Part shown: positions 16,931 through 26,365 of the stretch, in pieces | How the letters are laid out: every line of letters starts with the position of its first letter | Position numbering within the stretch: the first letter of the stretch is position 1 | IMG/VR virus record: IMGVR_UViG_3300015606_001334 | Span: 295,551 to 359,550 of that record | Length of the DNA stretch: 64,000 bases | Source: a virus | Taxonomy: Duplodnaviria > Caudoviricetes | Direction: 5' to 3' (one strand) | Translations under genes and position numbers: made by a program | The notes under the pieces: model-generated | What the model was told of the DNA's origin: nothing | Database searches by the model: none | The model's input: the letters and a program-made list of their open reading frames with translations, nothing else

Positions 16931-18580
16931 ATGGGTTGCGATTGCGGTTCAGTAGGTAAGTCTGACTTGTGGACATCAATCCCACAAAGCGCCCTTACCG
17001 AGATGCAATTAGGTGAAGACGTCGAGTGCTACGGCAAAAGAGCTCCAGAAGACACCGACAAGGCTGGACAACCAGAGATTGTTGACAAGATCCGAAATAA
17101 CGCAGTAGTTCCAGACTGTGAAATGAAGATTGACGTTCAATTTGAGCTGACACCTGGATCCCCGTCGTCTAAATTTACTGGGCCAGTAGTATGGAGCATG
17201 GTAGATCCTGATGATCAAACAGGATCCCGTGGAGCTTACACAATTAGTGTCTTGACCTTTACTTCGTCTGGTAAGTTGAGTGGAACAATGGACCCTCAAT
17301 CAGAGGGTAAGAAGTTCAACATTATGATCATTGCAAAGGATTCAAGTAATCCTCCAAAGATCATTGACTCGCGTTCTTATAATTTCAGTCCAAAGAAATG
17401 TACTCCGGGTGCTGACCTAAAATTTATTCATCCTCTACCAGGAGCGAGAACAACCAGTAAATTTGGGCCAAGAACTCCACCAGCGAATGGCGCAAGTAGT
17501 TTCCATAAAGGCGTCGACTTTGCCTATCCAGGCGGAGTCACTAAAGACGTTTTGGCTTCTTGCGACGGCAAAGTAACTAAAGCAGGTGTAGGATCAGGTT
17601 ATGGTAACGTTGTCTATATTCAACACGTTAACGGCTCAGGCAAACCAATGGCTGAAACCCGTTATGCCCACCTTGCTTCAATTTACGTGTCAGTAGGTCA
17701 GCAAGTTTCTGCAGGTCAGCCTGTCGGTAAGGAAGGAAACACCGGCATAGGTACAGGTTGCCATCTCCATTTTGAACTGAGATTGCCTGGCGATGTTGCA
17801 GTAGATCCACTTGAGTACATCAATGGCACGATAACTTCATCGAATTCGGGCACCACGACGAACTCAGACGGTGCTACAGTTCCGGATCCTGGTAATCCAA
17901 CAGGGCAAGCGTCCCAGCACGAGAACGTAAACAAAGCAGTAACAACCGCCAAAGTTGATGCAATCGCTGCAGGTTGTACACAACCGTTGCCAGCTCAGTC
18001 TGTTATTTCTCCAGCTAAAGAGCCAGCAAACGACAAGCCCGCTTTAGCATCATCTCGTGCTCCATGTAAACCTGAATCTGGTCAAAGCCCACCAGTATCT
18101 GAGGTAAAACAACGAATGAGAGCCGTCATGGACAAGCATCCTGAACTGGATGAGAATGACAAAAACTATTTGATGGCTATTGCAAAAATTGAGTCTTCAT
18201 ACGATCCATACGCAAAGAATAAAACTTCTTCGGCTACTGGATTGTTCCAAATGTTGGATTCAACCGCAAATGCTTATTACAAAAAGATCGGCCTTGAAGC
18301 GACTTGTGAAAATCGCTGTGATATCGAAAAGGCAACTGAAGCTGAAATCCTTTTCTACAAAGAAGGAAGCTTAAAGTACTATAATGAGTTCAAGAATAAG
18401 AGAACCCTTGAGCGCAAGAAGCTATCTCCAGATTTGATCGCTAAATACGACGCGCTAACCAAAGCGGAATTTTGCTACGGACTTATTCACCATGATGGAG
18501 TAGGCAATGCTGCAAATGGTGTCGATAAACAGGGCGTAGCAATTGCTAAAGCGAAATTAGGTGGAAGTGGCTTGGCGTAA
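16931..18580 (+). CDS. Peptidoglycan hydrolase: Ig-like + M23 peptidase + lytic transglycosylase (SLT)
   Basis: M23 motifs HKGVD, YAHL and HLHFE. SLT motif IAKIESSYDPYAKN..SSATGLFQ. Confidence 0.85.
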   Translation: MGCDCGSVGKSDLWTSIPQSALTEMQLGEDVECYGKRAPEDTDKAGQPEIVDKIRNNAVVPDCEMKIDVQFELTPGSPSSKFTGPVVWSMVDPDDQTGSRGAYTISVLTFTSSGKLSGTMDPQSEGKKFNIMIIAKDSSNPPKIIDSRSYNFSPKKCTPGADLKFIHPLPGARTTSKFGPRTPPANGASSFHKGVDFAYPGGVTKDVLASCDGKVTKAGVGSGYGNVVYIQHVNGSGKPMAETRYAHLASIYVSVGQQVSAGQPVGKEGNTGIGTGCHLHFELRLPGDVAVDPLEYINGTITSSNSGTTTNSDGATVPDPGNPTGQASQHENVNKAVTTAKVDAIAAGCTQPLPAQSVISPAKEPANDKPALASSRAPCKPESGQSPPVSEVKQRMRAVMDKHPELDENDKNYLMAIAKIESSYDPYAKNKTSSATGLFQMLDSTANAYYKKIGLEATCENRCDIEKATEAEILFYKEGSLKYYNEFKNKRTLERKKLSPDLIAKYDALTKAEFCYGLIHHDGVGNAANGVDKQGVAIAKAKLGGSGLA

Positions 18581-19138
18581 GTGTTCTATTAGAGGATAAT
18601 CCTCTTTCGATTTGAATCTCTTCCAATACTGCGGGTGGTAGAATGTTTTGCATTCCCACCCGTTTTCTTTTGCCCACTTTTCTGCTGTCTTCCCAAGGCA
18701 AATAACTTCTTTAGGATTAACCTCATTGACCATCGATGGATCATTTGGTGAATCGTCAAGATTGTACGCGTTTACCCAAAACAGTTTCGATTCGTCTATT
18801 TTAGCTTTCGCAAGTAGGCGATTCAGCCAACCTGAACAGCCATCGACATCACTGAAAGGATACGAACGCCTGAACGGAGAAGGACCCGCAGGTTTTTCTC
18901 CAATAATCACGATGATGGATCCATTGTTGTTGAAGTTTCCTGCGCAATTTTGAAATTTCTCAGGAATCGATCGGCTCAGGTCGATTCGATTGGATAATCG
19001 GGTGATTAACAGAATGTCGTCTTTGTAAACACTATGCCAATTTCCATCGTACATTAGGCGAGATAGGGCTGCAGCTCTACCGACTTTGAGCCCATTATCT
19101 TCAACGATCTTAAGGAGTTCGACTACTTTTGGGTGCAT
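18557..19138 (-). CDS. Uracil-DNA-glycosylase-superfamily protein
   Basis: IIGEKPAG..PF....G.WL, VICLGKTA and HPQY motifs resemble UDG family 4/5. Confidence 0.6.
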   Translation of the reverse strand: MHPKVVELLKIVEDNGLKVGRAAALSRLMYDGNWHSVYKDDILLITRLSNRIDLSRSIPEKFQNCAGNFNNNGSIIVIIGEKPAGPSPFRRSYPFSDVDGCSGWLNRLLAKAKIDESKLFWVNAYNLDDSPNDPSMVNEVNPKEVICLGKTAEKWAKENGWECKTFYHPQYWKRFKSKEDYPLIEHLRQATST

Positions 19139-19202: not shown

Positions 19203-19859
19203 TTAGACGTGATCGCTAAACCAGCTTTCAATGAATCCTGCTTTACCTGCTGGATACTTCTTAGGATCATACATCCACATTGCTGAACCATCATCCGGGT
19301 TAATGCAAATGTTGATCTTAACTTGATAGAGCGAGCCAATCAAGATTGGGGAAATCGCGGTAATGAAGTGTGGTCCTGCTGGGAAGATTACCAAGGTACC
19401 AGCTTGAGGAGCAAAGCTAAAGTTGTAAGCTGGGAATTCAAGCTTACCACCATATACCTCTGAACGTGGATCAAGAGGAGCTGTGTCATTGTAGTCTTTT
19501 AACCAAAGAATACCAACCAAATCGATGTCTTTAACCTTTACCCATTTCTTACGCATGAACTTCGAGTTCTCGCAGCCAGGATTCTCAGCCGGAGCTTTTT
19601 GATTCTCTGGGTAATACTGGAAGATCATTTTCTCAGCGCCCTTGAAAGAGCCATCATAACGATCTTCAATTTCGGGAACGATGGTTTTCAGTTTGCTGTA
19701 AATGAAGTCTTCACCTTCCAAGAAGTGTCTTTCCATTTTGATTGGATTGCCGTCTTGATCATAGTTTGGACTCTTAATCTCTATGCTCTTGACCAGCTCT
19801 TGACACTTCTTTGGAGAAACGAATTCTGGATAAATCAAAAATGGGCTTCTAATCGTCAT
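19203..19859 (-). CDS. 2OG-Fe(II) oxygenase-fold protein (metal ligands appear degenerate)
   Basis: LKDYND...YGGKLEFP...PQAGTLVIFP matches the prolyl-hydroxylase-like pattern. The HxD position reads GCE. Confidence 0.6.
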   Translation of the reverse strand: MTIRSPFLIYPEFVSPKKCQELVKSIEIKSPNYDQDGNPIKMERHFLEGEDFIYSKLKTIVPEIEDRYDGSFKGAEKMIFQYYPENQKAPAENPGCENSKFMRKKWVKVKDIDLVGILWLKDYNDTAPLDPRSEVYGGKLEFPAYNFSFAPQAGTLVIFPAGPHFITAISPILIGSLYQVKINICINPDDGSAMWMYDPKKYPAGKAGFIESWFSDHV

Positions 19860-19899
19860 ATAGTGTTTCTTATGTGTTTGGTTATGGTAATGAAGTTAT

Positions 19900-21534
19900 T
19901 TATTCTTCTTCACCTTTATTTTCGGAGTGATCTTTTGCGTCAACAGTGTCGAGTGATTTAGTTGAGAGGTGGACCAACGCTGGATTGACTAGGACATTAG
20001 CTTGAGCAAGAGCACGACGACCTAGAAGAACGTCATAGTTTAGGCCACCGCGGTCATTGACAGTGAATTCCACATTGTGGAGAACGTTGCCATCAATCAC
20101 AATATCCAAGCGGATAATTGGACGCTTTTCTTTACCGTTTGCTGCAACAATCTTAACGCTCTTCAATAGGCTGAAGCGGTAGCGATAGTCGCCAAAGGTA
20201 AACGAAATAGTTTCGTCATTCATGTCGATATCAGAACCGTTGATTGAGCTGTATTCTGCGCCGGTGTCGATACGAACATCAATTGGCTTTTCGTCGTTGA
20301 AGTACTTGATGACGACCTTATCAACAGAACCAACTAGAGAGAAGTCATCATTGCTGATTTTCTCTTTTTCTGGCTCAATTACTTTTTGATGTTCAGCATC
20401 CTTGTTAGGAGTCTCTTTAGTGTGCTTTGGTTCTTCGTCCTCTTCGGTTTCATGACCATCGCTATCCTCTTCAGATTCGACTTCTTCCTCTTCCTCATTG
20501 GACTTTGGCTCAGAGTCTTCCTCAGTCTCGTGACCGTCTGGATCTTCCTCTGATTCGACTTCTTCTTCTTCCTCTTCAGGAGCAACCTCACCAGAGTTTA
20601 CAACCTTCTCAGTAGGAGTGTTTTCTTGTTTGTTGACCTCGGAGTTCTCGGTGGCACCGCCCATCATTGTTCCTACGAACTCAATGACCTTATCAGCGAT
20701 GTTGAATTCAATCACTTCCTGCATCGCCTCGAAACCAGGAGAGCCATTAACTTCTAGTAGGTAGATTTCCTTGTCAACAACGATGTAATCGACTGCGGCG
20801 AACTGGGTACCAACTAGCTTTGCGGCTTTAATACAAATTTCGGATTCTTCTGGAGTTGGGTCGTACTTCTTAAGTTCTGCACCTTGATGAGCATTAGAAC
20901 GGAAGTCGCCGTCTGGGATAGTGCGAACTACACCAGCAAGAGCTTGATCACCAAGAACTAGGATACGAGCAGATTCTTCGTGAGCAATATATTCTTGAAG
21001 CATGAACTCAACGTTAGTCTTAACCAATTGCTGGCAGATAGAACGAAGAGACGCAAGAGAATCAGCACGCATAACACCAACACCGTGAGTACCGAAAATG
21101 GTCTTGACGATGACTGGGAATTTACCACCAATTGATTCAAGAGCTTTGTCCAACTGCTCTTCATTGATGAACAATGCAGTCTTTGGTGTTTTGATTCCCT
21201 CATTGTTGAGGATAATTTGAGTCTCGATTTTGTTTGACGCGGTTCTCATCGAGGTGCCAGTATTCAGAACCTTTACCCCAATCTTTTCAAAGTGCTTCAT
21301 AATAGCAACTTTGTAGTCAAGATTGGTTTCGGAAAGTCGTGGAATGCAAGCATCTGCCTTTTCAAACTTAGTACCCTTATTTGCGAAATACGTATCGGTC
21401 GCTAAATAAATGTAGCATTCGTCCGGGTTGATGACTTCTAATTCGAAGCCAGCTTTCTCAGCGCTTTCTGTGAACTTTTCCTGAACGAAACTTTCTGGTT
21501 CAGTAGTAAAAAGGACTATCTTTTTCTTATCCAT
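19900..21534 (-). CDS. rimK: RimK-family ATP-grasp ligase fused via an acidic linker to a RimB-like retropepsin protease
   Basis: FPVIVKT.FGTHG.GV, LQEYI, DFRSNAHQG and LEVNGSPG (RimK). RIDTGAEYSSI ... LLGR (aspartyl protease, RimB/'ATP-dependent Zn protease' family). Confidence 0.85.
   Translation of the reverse strand: MDKKKIVLFTTEPESFVQEKFTESAEKAGFELEVINPDECYIYLATDTYFANKGTKFEKADACIPRLSETNLDYKVAIMKHFEKIGVKVLNTGTSMRTASNKIETQIILNNEGIKTPKTALFINEEQLDKALESIGGKFPVIVKTIFGTHGVGVMRADSLASLRSICQQLVKTNVEFMLQEYIAHEESARILVLGDQALAGVVRTIPDGDFRSNAHQGAELKKYDPTPEESEICIKAAKLVGTQFAAVDYIVVDKEIYLLEVNGSPGFEAMQEVIEFNIADKVIEFVGTMMGGATENSEVNKQENTPTEKVVNSGEVAPEEEEEEVESEEDPDGHETEEDSEPKSNEEEEEVESEEDSDGHETEEDEEPKHTKETPNKDAEHQKVIEPEKEKISNDDFSLVGSVDKVVIKYFNDEKPIDVRIDTGAEYSSINGSDIDMNDETISFTFGDYRYRFSLLKSVKIVAANGKEKRPIIRLDIVIDGNVLHNVEFTVNDRGGLNYDVLLGRRALAQANVLVNPALVHLSTKSLDTVDAKDHSENKGEEE
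20425..20578 (-). repeat. Tandem duplication (~78 nt x2) in the acidic linker
   Basis: EEEEEVESEEDPDGHETEEDSEPK / EEEEEVESEEDSDGHETEEDEEPK. Confidence 0.85.
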
Positions 21535-21547
21535 TGCTTGCTGCCTC

Positions 21548-22006
21548 TTAGCAGAAGGTGCGATTACCAGGAACGCCTGCTAGCTCTCTCATGGTATTTA
21601 GAAGTTTAGTATTGTCTTTCTTAACTTCAGGCTGTTTTGATTCAACAAAAGTAACTTGTTGACCGGAGGTTTGGTCTGCTAGGGATGCTTTGCAGAAGGA
21701 AATTGATTTTAGAACCTTCGCGTTCTTGTATTCACCAGAGGCTGGGCAAGTCCAACTTACGTTTAGTACAATATCAAAAACTGCTTGGCTTGGATCGTTT
21801 GATGAAGATGCTGAAATAGATTCTGCATAAACACTGACGTCTTGGAATGAAGGTTCTTGTTGTGGAGCAACAACTGGAACTTCAGGGGAGTATTCAGTAT
21901 TAGGTACGGTTGAAACAACTGGAGTGTCGAACGCTGCTCCAACGGTGTCAGCACTTTGAACTGGCACTTGGGAAAGTGGTGCTGAAAAATTCATGGTTGG
22001 TTCCAT
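21548..22006 (-). CDS. Hypothetical protein (probable start MEPT at 22006), possibly head-associated
   Basis: AAGGA RBS before ATG 22006. C-terminal MRELAG motif. Confidence 0.55.
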   Translation of the reverse strand: MEPTMNFSAPLSQVPVQSADTVGAAFDTPVVSTVPNTEYSPEVPVVAPQQEPSFQDVSVYAESISASSSNDPSQAVFDIVLNVSWTCPASGEYKNAKVLKSISFCKASLADQTSGQQVTFVESKQPEVKKDNTKLLNTMRELAGVPGNRTFC

Positions 22007-22016
22007 TTTAGATCCT

Positions 22017-22679
22017 TTATTCTGATAGAAGAATTTCGTAGAAACGCTGAACGCGCGCTTCAAGCTTATCGAAGTATTTATTCAAATCAACGCAAAACTC
22101 TAATGGGAACCCGTCTTTAGTCGCCATAATGATTACGCCATGATCAATATTTGTTCCATACATTTCATTATGGGCTTGGGCATAAAAGGCTAACTGATAT
22201 TTGTAATCCTCAATCATGTCATCTGACTTGATTTTAGATGATGTTTTCCAGTCAAGGATACTCGCTTTGCCCTTATAGACGCCAATGCAGTCACATCTTC
22301 CGGCAATTCTCAGCTTGGTAGAGAACAATGCGACTTCCTGACCCCATACTTCATTGATCTTTTTGAGGTATCCTTTTACGGATTTGAAGCTTTTAATCTG
22401 TTGCTCAGTGAATTTCGACTCATCAATTTCTTCACCTTTGAGGAACATTTCGATTAGCAAATGAACAGCAGTCCCATTGGTGGTTGCCTCAAGGCTGATT
22501 TCAGCAGCTTTTTCTTCACCAATAGAGGCTTTCCAATTTTCTAAACTCTGTCGAGTTTCCTCTGATTGGGTTTTACCCAGCATGCTTGTAATAGACGGAA
22601 ATGCCAGCTCTTCGTTGATTACATACCAACGAAGATTGAATTCCTCAATAGTTTGAACGTCTTTGTAGTCGAATTTCAT
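22017..22679 (-). CDS. PD-(D/E)xK exonuclease (start probably MKFDY at 22679)
   Basis: PSITS.L, GTAVH..IE, E..L....IAGRCD, LDWKTS and YQLAFYA motifs. Confidence 0.8.
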   Translation of the reverse strand: MKFDYKDVQTIEEFNLRWYVINEELAFPSITSMLGKTQSEETRQSLENWKASIGEEKAAEISLEATTNGTAVHLLIEMFLKGEEIDESKFTEQQIKSFKSVKGYLKKINEVWGQEVALFSTKLRIAGRCDCIGVYKGKASILDWKTSSKIKSDDMIEDYKYQLAFYAQAHNEMYGTNIDHGVIIMATKDGFPLEFCVDLNKYFDKLEARVQRFYEILLSE

Positions 22680-22727: not shown

Positions 22728-24608
22728 TTATCCTAAAATTTTCTTTACCGATTTGGCAGAAATTAGAACGCCAAATGGATACTTGTCATTTGCGGATGGC
22801 TTGACATATTTTACAACAAATTCTTTGCCGGATGCCAATGAAACAAGATTTATTTTACCCTTGTTTTCTGACTTAACGACACCAGATTTACCCTTGGATA
22901 GTAGAGTAGAGAACTTGGTAAAGTCCGCATCAGAAAACTCTAGTGAGAAGTCCTTAACCTTGATTGTTGTACCACCGACTTCACCCATAGAAACTACGGA
23001 GAAAGTACCTAGATCGGCAAATTTATCAGTCTTGGAAAAATCTTCTAGTAGGCCAGTGGACTTGAACTCTTCAACCTTAGCTACTTCTGCTTCCTTAGCT
23101 ACAACTTGCTCGTAACCTTCCTTTAGGGAACCTTTACGCTCTGCCTTTAGAAGATCATTTAGCATGTAAATGTAGGTCTTGATACGAGTCTGCTTGATAG
23201 CGATCTTGGATAGGTTCTTGATGCGGTTTCTGAAGTCAGTTTTCTTGTAAGTTAGCAAGAATTCTGGTACACCAAGAGCGATAATCAAGTCATAAATTTT
23301 CTTGGAGATTTCAGTAGATAGTTGATCCTTAATTGCACCAACAACCTTCTCGTCCTTACCATCCTTGTCATCCTCTTCCTTAGCTTCGGCGATCTTATGG
23401 ATCTGACCCTTCTTAGCAGCAAGTTCCTTACCTAGCTTGTTTAGGATGTTCTTGATCTGTGGATGGTTTTGGATCATAGTAGCAATGTCTTTAACGCTCT
23501 TACGAACCTTAAACTTACGAATACCGATTTGATCAGCGCTTACACCCAAAAGAAGAACTGTTCTGAAGATCAATTGCTGGACAGGAGTAGAGAAGATCTT
23601 AGAAAGTTCTGCTTCTTCACCAGAAAGAGCAACGTGGAAAACGTCGTCAGTCTTGACATCATCTTCCTTTGGTTCTTCTTTTTTGACTTCCTTCTTTGGT
23701 TCCTTCTTCACTGCTTGAGCCTTGTGTTGCTTAGCTTCGTTTAGAGAAACCAATTGCTGTAGCAATGATTTGCCTTCTTGTTTCATTTTGTCGTCTTCCT
23801 TCTTAGGTTTCTTTTTGTCCTTCTTTTTGTCCTTCTTATCTGGATCAGTCTCATCATCTTCTGGATCTTCTTCAGCGTCGTCCTCTGATTTGTCTTCGGT
23901 GTCTGCTTCATCCTCACCATCTTCAGGTTTATCTTCACCTTCAGAATCGGCTTCGTCGTCGAAGCTTAGACCATCGGCAGTATCTTCACCATCTTCAGGC
24001 TTGTCTTCGCCGTCGGTTTCTTCGGTATCATCTTCAGACTCATCATCCTTCTTATCCTTCTTGTCATCTTTCTTTTTACCATCTTCGTCAGCGATTAGAT
24101 CTTCGTCATCCATGTCTTGAACGATATCGTCGTCAGTCAATGGTTCGTCAAGTTGATTTTCAATACCTGCCTCAGTAGAATCCTCTTCACCTGGAATTGA
24201 TCCGATTTCTTGAGCATCCTCTTCACCTGGCTTAACGACATGAACGATGTCGAATTCGTCAGATAGTTCTTCGAGCGCTTGATCGATATCATCGACCTTA
24301 CCAAGAAGTTGCGACATTTTCTGTTCAAAAGCTTCTGCTTCTTCAGCGTTGACGTAGACCTTTACGATTTCGCCATCAGTTGTTTCTAGGCCAAACGCTA
24401 CAGTGTCTACAGCGTCATCGGCTGCATCAACCGCTTGAAGATGATTGGTTACATCACCAGTGGTTAGTTCACTGCCGTGGATGTTCTTCAAAAGAGAGAA
24501 TTGGTTTGAAGCTGCATTTTGTGGGGTAGCCGCGATGTGTTGATCGTCTTCCTTGACGATACCCTTCGCTGCTAAAAAGTGTTTAAGTAGTGACATGTGG
24601 ATTTTCAC
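22728..24608 (-). CDS. Highly acidic protein, probable internal head protein
   Basis: 626 aa with a long D/E/K low-complexity tract. (L/I/V)-x-E motifs (VKED, LNEA, IAEA, LKEG, LLED) resemble T4 gp21 protease sites. Confidence 0.5.
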   Translation of the reverse strand: MKIHMSLLKHFLAAKGIVKEDDQHIAATPQNAASNQFSLLKNIHGSELTTGDVTNHLQAVDAADDAVDTVAFGLETTDGEIVKVYVNAEEAEAFEQKMSQLLGKVDDIDQALEELSDEFDIVHVVKPGEEDAQEIGSIPGEEDSTEAGIENQLDEPLTDDDIVQDMDDEDLIADEDGKKKDDKKDKKDDESEDDTEETDGEDKPEDGEDTADGLSFDDEADSEGEDKPEDGEDEADTEDKSEDDAEEDPEDDETDPDKKDKKKDKKKPKKEDDKMKQEGKSLLQQLVSLNEAKQHKAQAVKKEPKKEVKKEEPKEDDVKTDDVFHVALSGEEAELSKIFSTPVQQLIFRTVLLLGVSADQIGIRKFKVRKSVKDIATMIQNHPQIKNILNKLGKELAAKKGQIHKIAEAKEEDDKDGKDEKVVGAIKDQLSTEISKKIYDLIIALGVPEFLLTYKKTDFRNRIKNLSKIAIKQTRIKTYIYMLNDLLKAERKGSLKEGYEQVVAKEAEVAKVEEFKSTGLLEDFSKTDKFADLGTFSVVSMGEVGGTTIKVKDFSLEFSDADFTKFSTLLSKGKSGVVKSENKGKINLVSLASGKEFVVKYVKPSANDKYPFGVLISAKSVKKILG

Positions 24609-24625: not shown

Positions 24626-26365
24626 TTATTTATGAGATTTTTTCTTTGGGAAATAATTTCTCTTGACTCGTTTCAATACCTTACCGTTGAACATACGGAC
24701 TGGTACTGGAGCGATCATACTTGAGGTGGTTGCTCCATCTGTAGCTCCAGCCACGGCAGCACTTGTAGTCGCAGGGGCCGCAACATCTCCACCTTCACCA
24801 TCTTCAACTAAAGAAGTTACGGTTTTAAGCAATGATAGATTTTCTGACATTTGTTTTCCTTTTGTCTTAAGAGACTCTTCAACTTTACTGTGGACGTCGG
24901 AAATGAATTTTCCGTAGATTGCCAAAATTAGGTCTTCAGTTCGTTTAGCCTTCTTAGTGGATTGAATGAGCTTATCGAGTTCCTTATTCAATTCAGCAAA
25001 TGCTAATAGAGTTCTCTTCTTAGATTCTTCCGAATATTGAATAGTCTTTCCGTTCTTCAACTCGACTTTGTAATCGCCTGATTCTCTCTTGAAGATGTCG
25101 AGTCGTTCATTTAGGTCGTTTCTAGTATCTTGTAAGATTGCGAGTATCTTATTCTTGTACATGTCGAAGTCTTTAATTTTCAACGACTTTACGAAATGTT
25201 CTGCAGTTTCCTCTACTGAATTACCTCTATAGCTAGCGAAGATCTTCTTTGCCTTCGCGGATCTAGCGAGTTCTTTGATATCGAATAGGTTTGCAATTCG
25301 TAGCTTGCAATTTCCGAATACTCCGCCCTTATTCAACAGTGGAGCTTCCATATCATCAGACATTACAGCACCGTTCAATTCATTTCTGATTTTGAAATTG
25401 AACTCATTGATCGCGGTAAAGAGGTCTCTATCAACAATCTTGATTTGATTGTCGCCATCGGACAGAACGAAACCTTCTAGGTCGCTTCTCTCTTTAGATT
25501 TGATGGTGGAGCTGAGGAATTCACCATTGTCAAGAAGATCTGCAAATAGTTGCTTCTTGATTGGTAATTTAAATTGGGTTAGAACTTGTTGATTTAGAAC
25601 GTCTTTCTCGCTCTTAATCACTTCTTTTGCGGCTGCTGGAATACCAACTAAACGCATAGTCATCGCTTCAAAATTCGATACCTCTCTATTGAGAGCTTTA
25701 GAAACTACATCGTTGCGGTCCTTAAGGAAGCTTTCTAGCTTTCCGACGATCTTCAACACCGACTTATGAGAGATTAAGCTTGACGAAACCTTCTCAGAAA
25801 CGTTCTTCACAATCTTCCATTTGAATGGTGATTTAGATGTGACTAGGTGTTGTCCATCAAGTGTGTCAATGATATTTGATTGGACAGTAGTTTCTTTTCC
25901 GTTGAGTGCATCCGCTAGCTTGTCAAAATGTGCTTGAGAAGTTCCGTCGACTGGACGTAGAAGGACGATGTAGTTAGTACCGTCTTCAGAATACTTTACC
26001 ACGTTTGGTTGTTTGCCGAAAACGACTTCAATTTCAATCTTATCGCCTGGGTGTAGATGACCTCGATACTTTCCAAGCTTCATGAAAGATTCGAGCGCAT
26101 CGTGCGCGGATCGGAATCCATTGTACGCGGCAACTTTGCTATAATCACCAGAAGCATATTTGCGATCTTTGTCGCCGGACTTTTGTTCACGAGTAGTATA
26201 GAAAATATCAGAGTCGTCTAAGCCAAACCACAAGTTTGCCCCGTCAATCTTTTCAGATACACGGAAGTTGAAGATGTTCTTGATGATTTCTATGAACTTG
26301 TCAATTGACAAATCTTCAATGTGGGTGATGCCTTCGTTAAGTCTGATGAGTCTCATGGTGGTCAC
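24626..26365 (-). CDS. Ligase/nucleotidyltransferase-like protein (KxDG; DUF6267-like); start probably ATG 26356
   Basis: EKIDG (motif I), EIEVV, EGFVL (IV) and IKIVDR (V). N-terminal LNEG. Under a TATAAATA promoter. Confidence 0.6.
   Translation of the reverse strand: MTTMRLIRLNEGITHIEDLSIDKFIEIIKNIFNFRVSEKIDGANLWFGLDDSDIFYTTREQKSGDKDRKYASGDYSKVAAYNGFRSAHDALESFMKLGKYRGHLHPGDKIEIEVVFGKQPNVVKYSEDGTNYIVLLRPVDGTSQAHFDKLADALNGKETTVQSNIIDTLDGQHLVTSKSPFKWKIVKNVSEKVSSSLISHKSVLKIVGKLESFLKDRNDVVSKALNREVSNFEAMTMRLVGIPAAAKEVIKSEKDVLNQQVLTQFKLPIKKQLFADLLDNGEFLSSTIKSKERSDLEGFVLSDGDNQIKIVDRDLFTAINEFNFKIRNELNGAVMSDDMEAPLLNKGGVFGNCKLRIANLFDIKELARSAKAKKIFASYRGNSVEETAEHFVKSLKIKDFDMYKNKILAILQDTRNDLNERLDIFKRESGDYKVELKNGKTIQYSEESKKRTLLAFAELNKELDKLIQSTKKAKRTEDLILAIYGKFISDVHSKVEESLKTKGKQMSENLSLLKTVTSLVEDGEGGDVAAPATTSAAVAGATDGATTSSMIAPVPVRMFNGKVLKRVKRNYFPKKKSHK

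Follow-up and report, generated by a model that had tools for sequence, protein, structure and literature searches.

We report a jumbo-phage gene whose product is predicted to unite a RimK-family α-L-glutamate ligase and a RimB/RloA-type protease in one polypeptide and which, like most of its homologues, ends in three glutamates. The fusion itself is already known, and the conserved three-Glu end appears to be a new, undescribed feature. We favor, at a probability of roughly 55%, the reading that the protein is a self-primed write/trim enzyme, which would lengthen and reset the tail that it carries, besides acting on an outside target, for example the host ribosomal protein S6; within this reading we infer the enzymatic activity, the use of the tail as acceptor, the release of polymer and the host target.

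Results

The fusion gene lies on the minus strand at positions 19,900-21,534 of the 64,000-nt stretch of DNA analysed here (the window), and encodes 544 amino acids, as identified from its open reading frame and from Pfam and NCBIfam matches. Its source is a complete 359,550-base virus record, an approximately 360-kb jumbo phage similar to Ralstonia phage RsoM2USA, which is the closest isolate by DNA polymerase (49% identity). The gene is confirmed as real and intact; an identical fusion protein occurs on 11 contigs, so it is not an assembly artefact. Pfam places Rimk_N at residues 5-94 (E 3.6e-14), RimK at 99-286 (E 8.2e-42) and PF05618 at 404-523 (E 1.1e-11; 45.3 bits against a gathering score of 27), the translation ends in ...KGEEE, and most of the ligase and protease domains are modeled in the predicted monomer at a pLDDT above 90. 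These results bear out the sequence-only reading, which had seen an intact RimK ATP-grasp domain, a DTG retropepsin domain and a ...GEEE end in one open reading frame; its view that a writer and an eraser share one polypeptide is supported by active sites that appear intact in both domains. The order RimK then PF05618, here with the acidic linker between them, is that by which phage fusions were defined (Monier et al. 2008), and is the reverse of the bacterial RimBK order, in which RimB is N-terminal to RimK. A GTDB scan for a cellular donor of the same architecture returned RimK-domain matches only, the scan being pattern-limited and the absence thus not proven. One clade member (P0026) is filed at NCBI under a Candidatus Nitrosotenuis MAG, on a 107-kb contig that is probably a mis-binned phage contig.

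Across dozens of jumbo-phage contigs the gene order around the fusion is fixed: a primase-like gene, a helicase, a 579-aa gene, an acidic 626-aa gene, an exonuclease, a small gene with a RELAG motif, the fusion, and a 2OG-Fe(II) oxygenase-like gene. The motif ATAAATA behaves as a late promoter, as 84 of its 133 genomic copies lie near gene starts, including those of head and tail genes, against 10 expected. The nearest copy upstream of the fusion (22,075-22,081, minus strand) precedes a 152-aa gene with a C-terminal RELAG-type motif (21,548-22,006, minus strand), which lies directly upstream of the fusion in many relatives. Only 13 nt separate the end of this gene from the fusion start, and no minus-strand terminator was found between them; because the promoter motif precedes the 152-aa gene, it probably drives both genes as one transcript. 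A second copy (19,897-19,903, minus strand) overlaps the stop codon of the fusion, in front of the oxygenase-like gene.

For the 152-aa protein neither a family nor an ESM Atlas match was found, and in another subgroup its place is taken by another small protein, whose RLAG motif is similar, together with a gene of 270-280 aa. The 579-aa late gene (24,626-26,365, minus strand) has a weak DUF6267 match, is kept in the whole clade and in PA5oct-like phages, and is split into two open reading frames in one subgroup. The very acidic 626-aa late protein (22,728-24,608, minus strand) contains several L/I-x-E sites and keeps its position in more than 30 loci; at one locus (L031) its homologue ends in EEE, whereas the RimK fusion there ends in DDEK. 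Downstream of the fusion in 31 loci lies the 218-aa gene with a weak 2OG-Fe(II) oxygenase match (19,203-19,859, minus strand), which is kept in RsoM2USA. A 193-aa protein with a weak Pfam match to the uracil-DNA-glycosylase superfamily (18,557-19,138, minus strand) occurs in few relatives only, and in one relative (L006, 9569 onward) a 2112-aa open reading frame is inserted right after the fusion. RsoM2USA carries the gene block without the fusion, so the fusion is dispensable in at least one lineage. The phage genome has 45 tRNA calls and a tmRNA, and no ribosomal protein S6 gene was found in it. ARAGORN reports one CUA-anticodon (amber, 'Pyl') tRNA in each of four complete related genomes (G000-G003), among 46-53 tRNA/tmRNA calls.

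The ligase part comprises a RimK pre-ATP-grasp domain (aa 5-94; 21,253-21,522, minus strand), with T10 and R66 in the acceptor groove and the clade-specific residues E12, E69 and K75, and a RimK ATP-grasp domain (aa 99-287; 20,674-21,240, minus strand) recognized by Pfam, alignment and fold match. The conserved residues of the latter are K102, K144, E181, R190, R204, R212, N214, D249, E261 and N263, of which K102, K144, R190, R212, N214, D249, E261 and N263 do not vary within the clade, while R204, like R66, is nearly invariant. The S7, R64, R189 and N262 of P. aeruginosa RimK that contact the Glu chain (PMC10092738) map to conserved positions in the phage protein, and the mapping covers the ADP-binding core and the proximal Glu-chain contacts. 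The ligase domain can be aligned over its whole length to RimK of E. coli and Pseudomonas (E 5e-41), and the protein passes the TIGR00768 family cut-off (194.6 bits against 143.4). It scores below the cut-off of the LysX model (118.9 against 275.6) and far below that of the S6--L-glutamate ligase equivalog (NF007764; 154 against 331 bits), and for the latter reason is not classed here as a strict S6 ligase. The best fold match of the predicted ligase model is RimK (Z 34.2, against 31.3 for ArgX), with a TM of 0.88-0.92 depending on the target.

The phage ligase departs from the other RimK sequences of the alignment at a residue of the core: the Asp of the D-I-R motif, invariant in all 99 other rows, is Ser188 in the phage protein and Ser (52), Ala or Gly in the EEE clade. 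This Asp contacts the nucleotide, so ligase activity or nucleotide choice may differ in the clade. The equivalent of R8 is also absent from the EEE clade, in which the position is not basic, and H185, K75 and Q272 are invariant there; at residues 185-188 (20,971-20,982, minus strand) the clade-wide Asp-to-Ser change thus stands three residues after an invariant His. With Ser188 as the one exception, the profile, the modeled fold and the ATP, metal and Glu residues argue for a RimK-family α-L-glutamate ligase.

The RimB/RloA-type retropepsin domain (aa 401-523; 19,966-20,334, minus strand) was recognized by Pfam, NCBIfam, fold match and alignment. It carries DTG at residues 423-425, with D423 as the catalytic Asp, and D423-T-G-A is essentially invariant across the clade. 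Its predicted model is matched by RloA2 (9G59) at Z 17.1, with an rmsd of 2.2 across 124 residues, and by Lpg0085 at Z 16.7. The best NCBIfam match is RloA3 (E 2e-13), with structure matches to 9G58 and 9G59, and the scores lie below the equivalog cut-offs of both RimB (NF052261; 35.5 against 200) and RloA3 (NF052264; 50.4 against 210). RloA holds poly-Glu by K46, R114 and R137, and the substitutions R114A and R137A impair cleavage (PMC12239564); in our alignment these residues correspond to the clade-conserved R421, R471 and R495 of the phage protein. Taken with D423 and the RloA-like fold of the model, these three arginines indicate that the domain is most likely a Glu-specific endopeptidase rather than a generic protease.

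The C-terminal Glu-Glu-Glu (19,903-19,911, minus strand), the proposed built-in acceptor, follows a variable tail. Among the first 89 homologues (28-99% identity, 87 complete), 75 of the 87 complete proteins end in EEE, against a mean of 1.3 and a maximum of 6 when the last 20 residues were shuffled; conservation of the terminal EE(E), a check named in advance, is thereby strongly upheld. Positions -4 to -8 before the EEE are variable, 52 of 55 dereplicated tails have three terminal Glu, neither more nor fewer, and Asp rarely replaces Glu, which is strongly preferred. The specificity of RimB likewise favors Glu over Asp (PMC11957791). The tails of 19 of 37 distinct sequences depart from GAA-GAA-GAA-TAA in synonymous codons, in the stop codon or, in one case, in an Asp; GAA and GAG are mixed, all three stop codons are used, and the gap to the next gene varies, so the constraint acts on the protein. 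Owing to this variation of codons, stops and spacing, and to the occurrence of ATAAATA over the stop codon in just four of the loci checked, a DNA-level cause of the EEE, such as overlap with a promoter or ribosome-binding site, was rejected.

Among the roughly 500 genes of the genome, the fusion is the only one with an EEE end. Genes ending in EE stand at the background level (1-7 per genome), and in a comparison of six related genomes the fusion was the one conserved family with an EE end. The suggestion that other phage proteins are targets found no support here, and phage-encoded acceptor proteins were rejected as an explanation. A 75-aa gene (L196; G000:C1:9762-9989, minus strand) has a late promoter upstream, a basic first half and an acidic VEE end, and is a weak candidate acceptor only, because it has no homologue in five related genomes.

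The tail is absent from 21 of 76 dereplicated clade members, through several losses, and both active sites are kept in these proteins, some of which may be truncated gene calls. Only L67, L260 and V262 stood out among residues that change on tail loss, in a comparison confounded by long branches. At its shortest, the tail extends about 10 residues beyond the protease fold. Its pLDDT is below 50 in two AlphaFold2 monomer models, a level uninformative on docking, and co-modeling of two RimK domains with the C-terminal 32 residues scored 0.00 and was kept out of the evidence. We found no mention of the conserved EEE end, nor of RimK together with auto-glutamylation, in the papers searched, which cover the literature incompletely.

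In the RimK-domain tree, a quick IQ-TREE run rooted at the midpoint, every EEE protein belongs to a single supported group (SH-aLRT 99 for 81 rows, 96 for 78), inside which the tail-less members are scattered. A second group of phage fusions, T4-like and including Mosig, forms a separate clade. None of its 56 fusions ends in EE, and neither does any of the 43 cellular RimK/RimBK rows sampled, a sample that does not include the fusions of ligase and protease in haloarchaea to which Monier et al. (2008, PMC2530865) refer. The N-terminal extension has a median of 38 aa in the T4-like clade against 1 aa in the EEE proteins, and a leader-like start, by a rough capsid-targeting pattern, was found in 21 of 56 T4-like fusions against none of 55 EEE proteins. 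Between the two motifs, the linker has a median of 112 residues and an acidic fraction of 0.34 in the EEE group, against 65 residues and 0.13 in the tail-less T4-like clade. In a related 345-kb phage a further RimB-like protease is encoded on its own (L223; G003:C1:147613-148521), by a gene whose start is of the capsid-targeting type and whose first half may hold a frameshift or a fusion.

The linker (aa 291-400; 20,335-20,664, minus strand), acidic in composition and predicted to be disordered, contains 36 Glu and 9 Asp in 110 residues, with Glu runs at 320-325 and 347-351, and no other of the roughly 500 genes encodes a run of at least five Glu. The six-Glu run (20,560-20,577, minus strand) is five in the nearest variant (P0002), its length not being conserved. 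The Glu-rich linker of about 110 residues noted at the outset is thus present, but its length and its second Glu run stem from a recent 78-nt tandem duplication (20,414-20,569; 72% identity); most close relatives have a linker of about 85 aa with one Glu run. In nearly all clade members the linker is acidic, at lengths from 20 to 110 aa, and its longest Glu run among 88 homologues ranges from 1 to 10. RimB needs 5-6 contiguous Glu and leaves four or fewer uncut (PMC11957791 Table 1), and RloA needs 8 and does not cut six (PMC12239564). Since a run of at least six occurs in just 18 of the 88 homologues, the idea of the linker as a cleavage substrate finds no support as a feature of the family. 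The linker reads instead as a flexible tether, through which the protease and the tail could be brought to the active site of the ligase; it does not look like a cleavage site kept across the family, although a few lineages with at least eight contiguous Glu could be cut.

Discussion

Phage RimK homologues with a C-terminal DUF785/PF05618 domain were described from ocean metagenomes, and an action on translation was suggested for them (Monier et al. 2008, PMC2530865). These fusions, Pelagibacter phage Mosig_00005 and Yersinia phage YerA41_066/g112 are phage-encoded and share the ligase-then-protease order of the protein studied here. However, fusions of the Mosig/YerA41 type carry an N-terminal extension, in many cases leader-like, and a short neutral linker, and they lack a terminal EE; the EEE clade differs from them in each of these respects. 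The YerA41 fusion, matched here by gene order, has been detected in purified particles and has its peak in the middle phase (PMC7354516). Among cellular proteins, RimBK hybrids are known from Desulfotalea psychrophila (DP2392), Flavobacteriales and Rhodobacterales (Little et al. 2025, PMC11957791); like the phage fusion they are one chain, but they have the opposite domain order. The RimB part of the hybrid cuts poly-Glu, and D. psychrophila RimBK showed no ligase activity on RpsF (PMC11957791). Pseudomonas RimABK and E. coli RimK with RpsF have in common with the phage protein the RimK fold, the catalytic set, the RimB motif, and writing or trimming on an acidic C-terminus (PMC7343187, PMC4741518, PMC10092738). 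Unlike the phage fusion, they are separate chains that act on host S6 as acceptor under the control of RimA and c-di-GMP. RloA of the RloABC operon (Lormand et al. 2025, PMC12239564) shares its poly-Glu-binding residues with the phage protease domain, but is secreted, stand-alone, and works with the membrane protein RloB, and nothing alike was seen at the phage locus.

LysW is a separate protein that takes one amino acid on its γ-carboxyl, for biosynthesis. In the LysX/ArgX systems, a RimK-family ligase acts on the C-terminal Glu of this dedicated acidic carrier (3VPB, Z 31.3).

How could a ligase, a protease and a three-Glu end work together? The enzyme, expressed late, would be a bifunctional poly-α-L-glutamate enzyme carrying its own acceptor. 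Using ATP, the RimK domain would add Glu to the acidic C-terminus, and the retropepsin domain, as a dimer, would cut Glu runs beyond about 5-8 residues. The acceptor of RimK needs an acidic penultimate residue, RpsF D139K being left unmodified (PMC4741518); given this and the RimB (5-6 Glu) and RloA (8 Glu) thresholds, a three-Glu end should be writable and not erasable. The encoded EEE may then be the resting state of a write/trim cycle, long enough to extend and too short to cut. Through the long flexible linker, the tail could cycle in cis or between subunits, and the cycle would release free oligo-Glu; it would also stand in competition with the modification of an outside target, for instance host S6, or determine how far that modification goes. 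The step from the RimK and RimB thresholds to self-priming is one that we infer.

Several points count against self-priming. The Asp of the D-I-R motif is replaced and the R8 equivalent lost in the clade, which may bear on activity; the D. psychrophila RimBK showed no ligase activity on RpsF; RimB leaves 4-5 Glu, not three (PMC7343187); the papers searched do not mention RimK together with auto-glutamylation; and RsoM2USA, the closest isolate, has the gene block without the fusion. Moreover, as 21 of 76 clade members lack the tail and keep both active sites, the tail is not the sole reason for the enzyme, and an outside substrate or free-polymer synthesis matters as well.

The persistence of both active sites after tail loss, and throughout the tail-less T4-like clade, implies that an outside substrate exists, and this also suits a different role for the tail, which we regard as possible at well below even odds. 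The EEE would here be a pseudo-substrate or product mimic that is not extended; bound in the basic groove of one of the two domains, protease or ligase, it would damp an enzyme whose actual task is to add and trim Glu on host S6 or other host proteins with acidic ends, late in infection or after injection. Tails down to about 10 residues past the protease fold, and the finding of neither a conserved EE-ending phage substrate nor a phage S6, agree with such a role; the virion-associated YerA41 homologue and the 45 tRNA calls and tmRNA agree with a host target. On the other hand, in chemical terms a free C-terminal EE beside an intact RimK site is just the kind of end that RimK lengthens, and the T4-like clade does without a damping tail.

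Together, RimK and RimB yield free poly-α-Glu (PMC11957791). It is conceivable, if doubtful, that the phage protein is a self-contained α-poly-glutamate synthase, with ligase, release protease and primer in one chain, which would make free poly-α-glutamate late and would not need a host ribosomal protein. If this were true, the polymer could serve as a head polyanion, a decoy, or a glutamate/ATP sink.

That the EEE has nothing to do with glutamylation, and instead marks the protein for docking, head packaging or protection from degradation in place of the capsid-targeting leader at the N-terminus of the T4-like proteins, seems unlikely to us. Leader and tail are mutually exclusive (21 of 56 against none of 55 leader-like starts), and the gene belongs to a late block whose 579-aa member is homologous to RsoM2USA ORF438, one of ten virion bands (PMC8504454). 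As in T4-type head-packaged internal proteins, a late promoter is present, at 22,075-22,081 ahead of the upstream gene, but by the rough pattern none of the 55 EEE proteins has a capsid-targeting leader; packaging of the EEE-clade protein in the virion is conceivable although it carries no leader, the proteomic evidence for presence in a virion being that for the distant YerA41 homologue. However, an EEE end is not seen in any further late or head protein family of these phages, so the EEE is not a general packaging signal. Either acidic residue protects a C-terminal end from tail-specific proteases, and yet Asp is rare in the tail. An EEE confined to a Glu ligase/Glu protease would, for any unrelated signal, be a coincidence.

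Programmed self-processing, by which the protease would cut the poly-Glu linker and separate the two domains, is improbable: although the one six-Glu run here is at the RimB threshold, RimB can cut an internal eight-Glu linker (PMC11957791) and 12 of 88 homologues have at least eight contiguous Glu, the runs are of four or fewer in 55 of 88, the nearest variant has one of five, six Glu are not enough for RloA, and the linker length here is due to the recent duplication.

In the papers cited here, the roles of RimK and RimB beyond S6, and the priming and release of free poly-α-glutamate, are open questions. The strictly three-Glu end on the enzyme itself is a specific feature that is testable on one protein. 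Should the tail not be an acceptor, the gene would be a widespread candidate, conserved in position, for phage editing of host ribosomes. Should the tail be the acceptor, as the self-primed write/trim reading proposes, the phage protein would be a self-glutamylating enzyme of a kind absent from the papers searched, and poly-α-Glu might then be obtained from a single gene.
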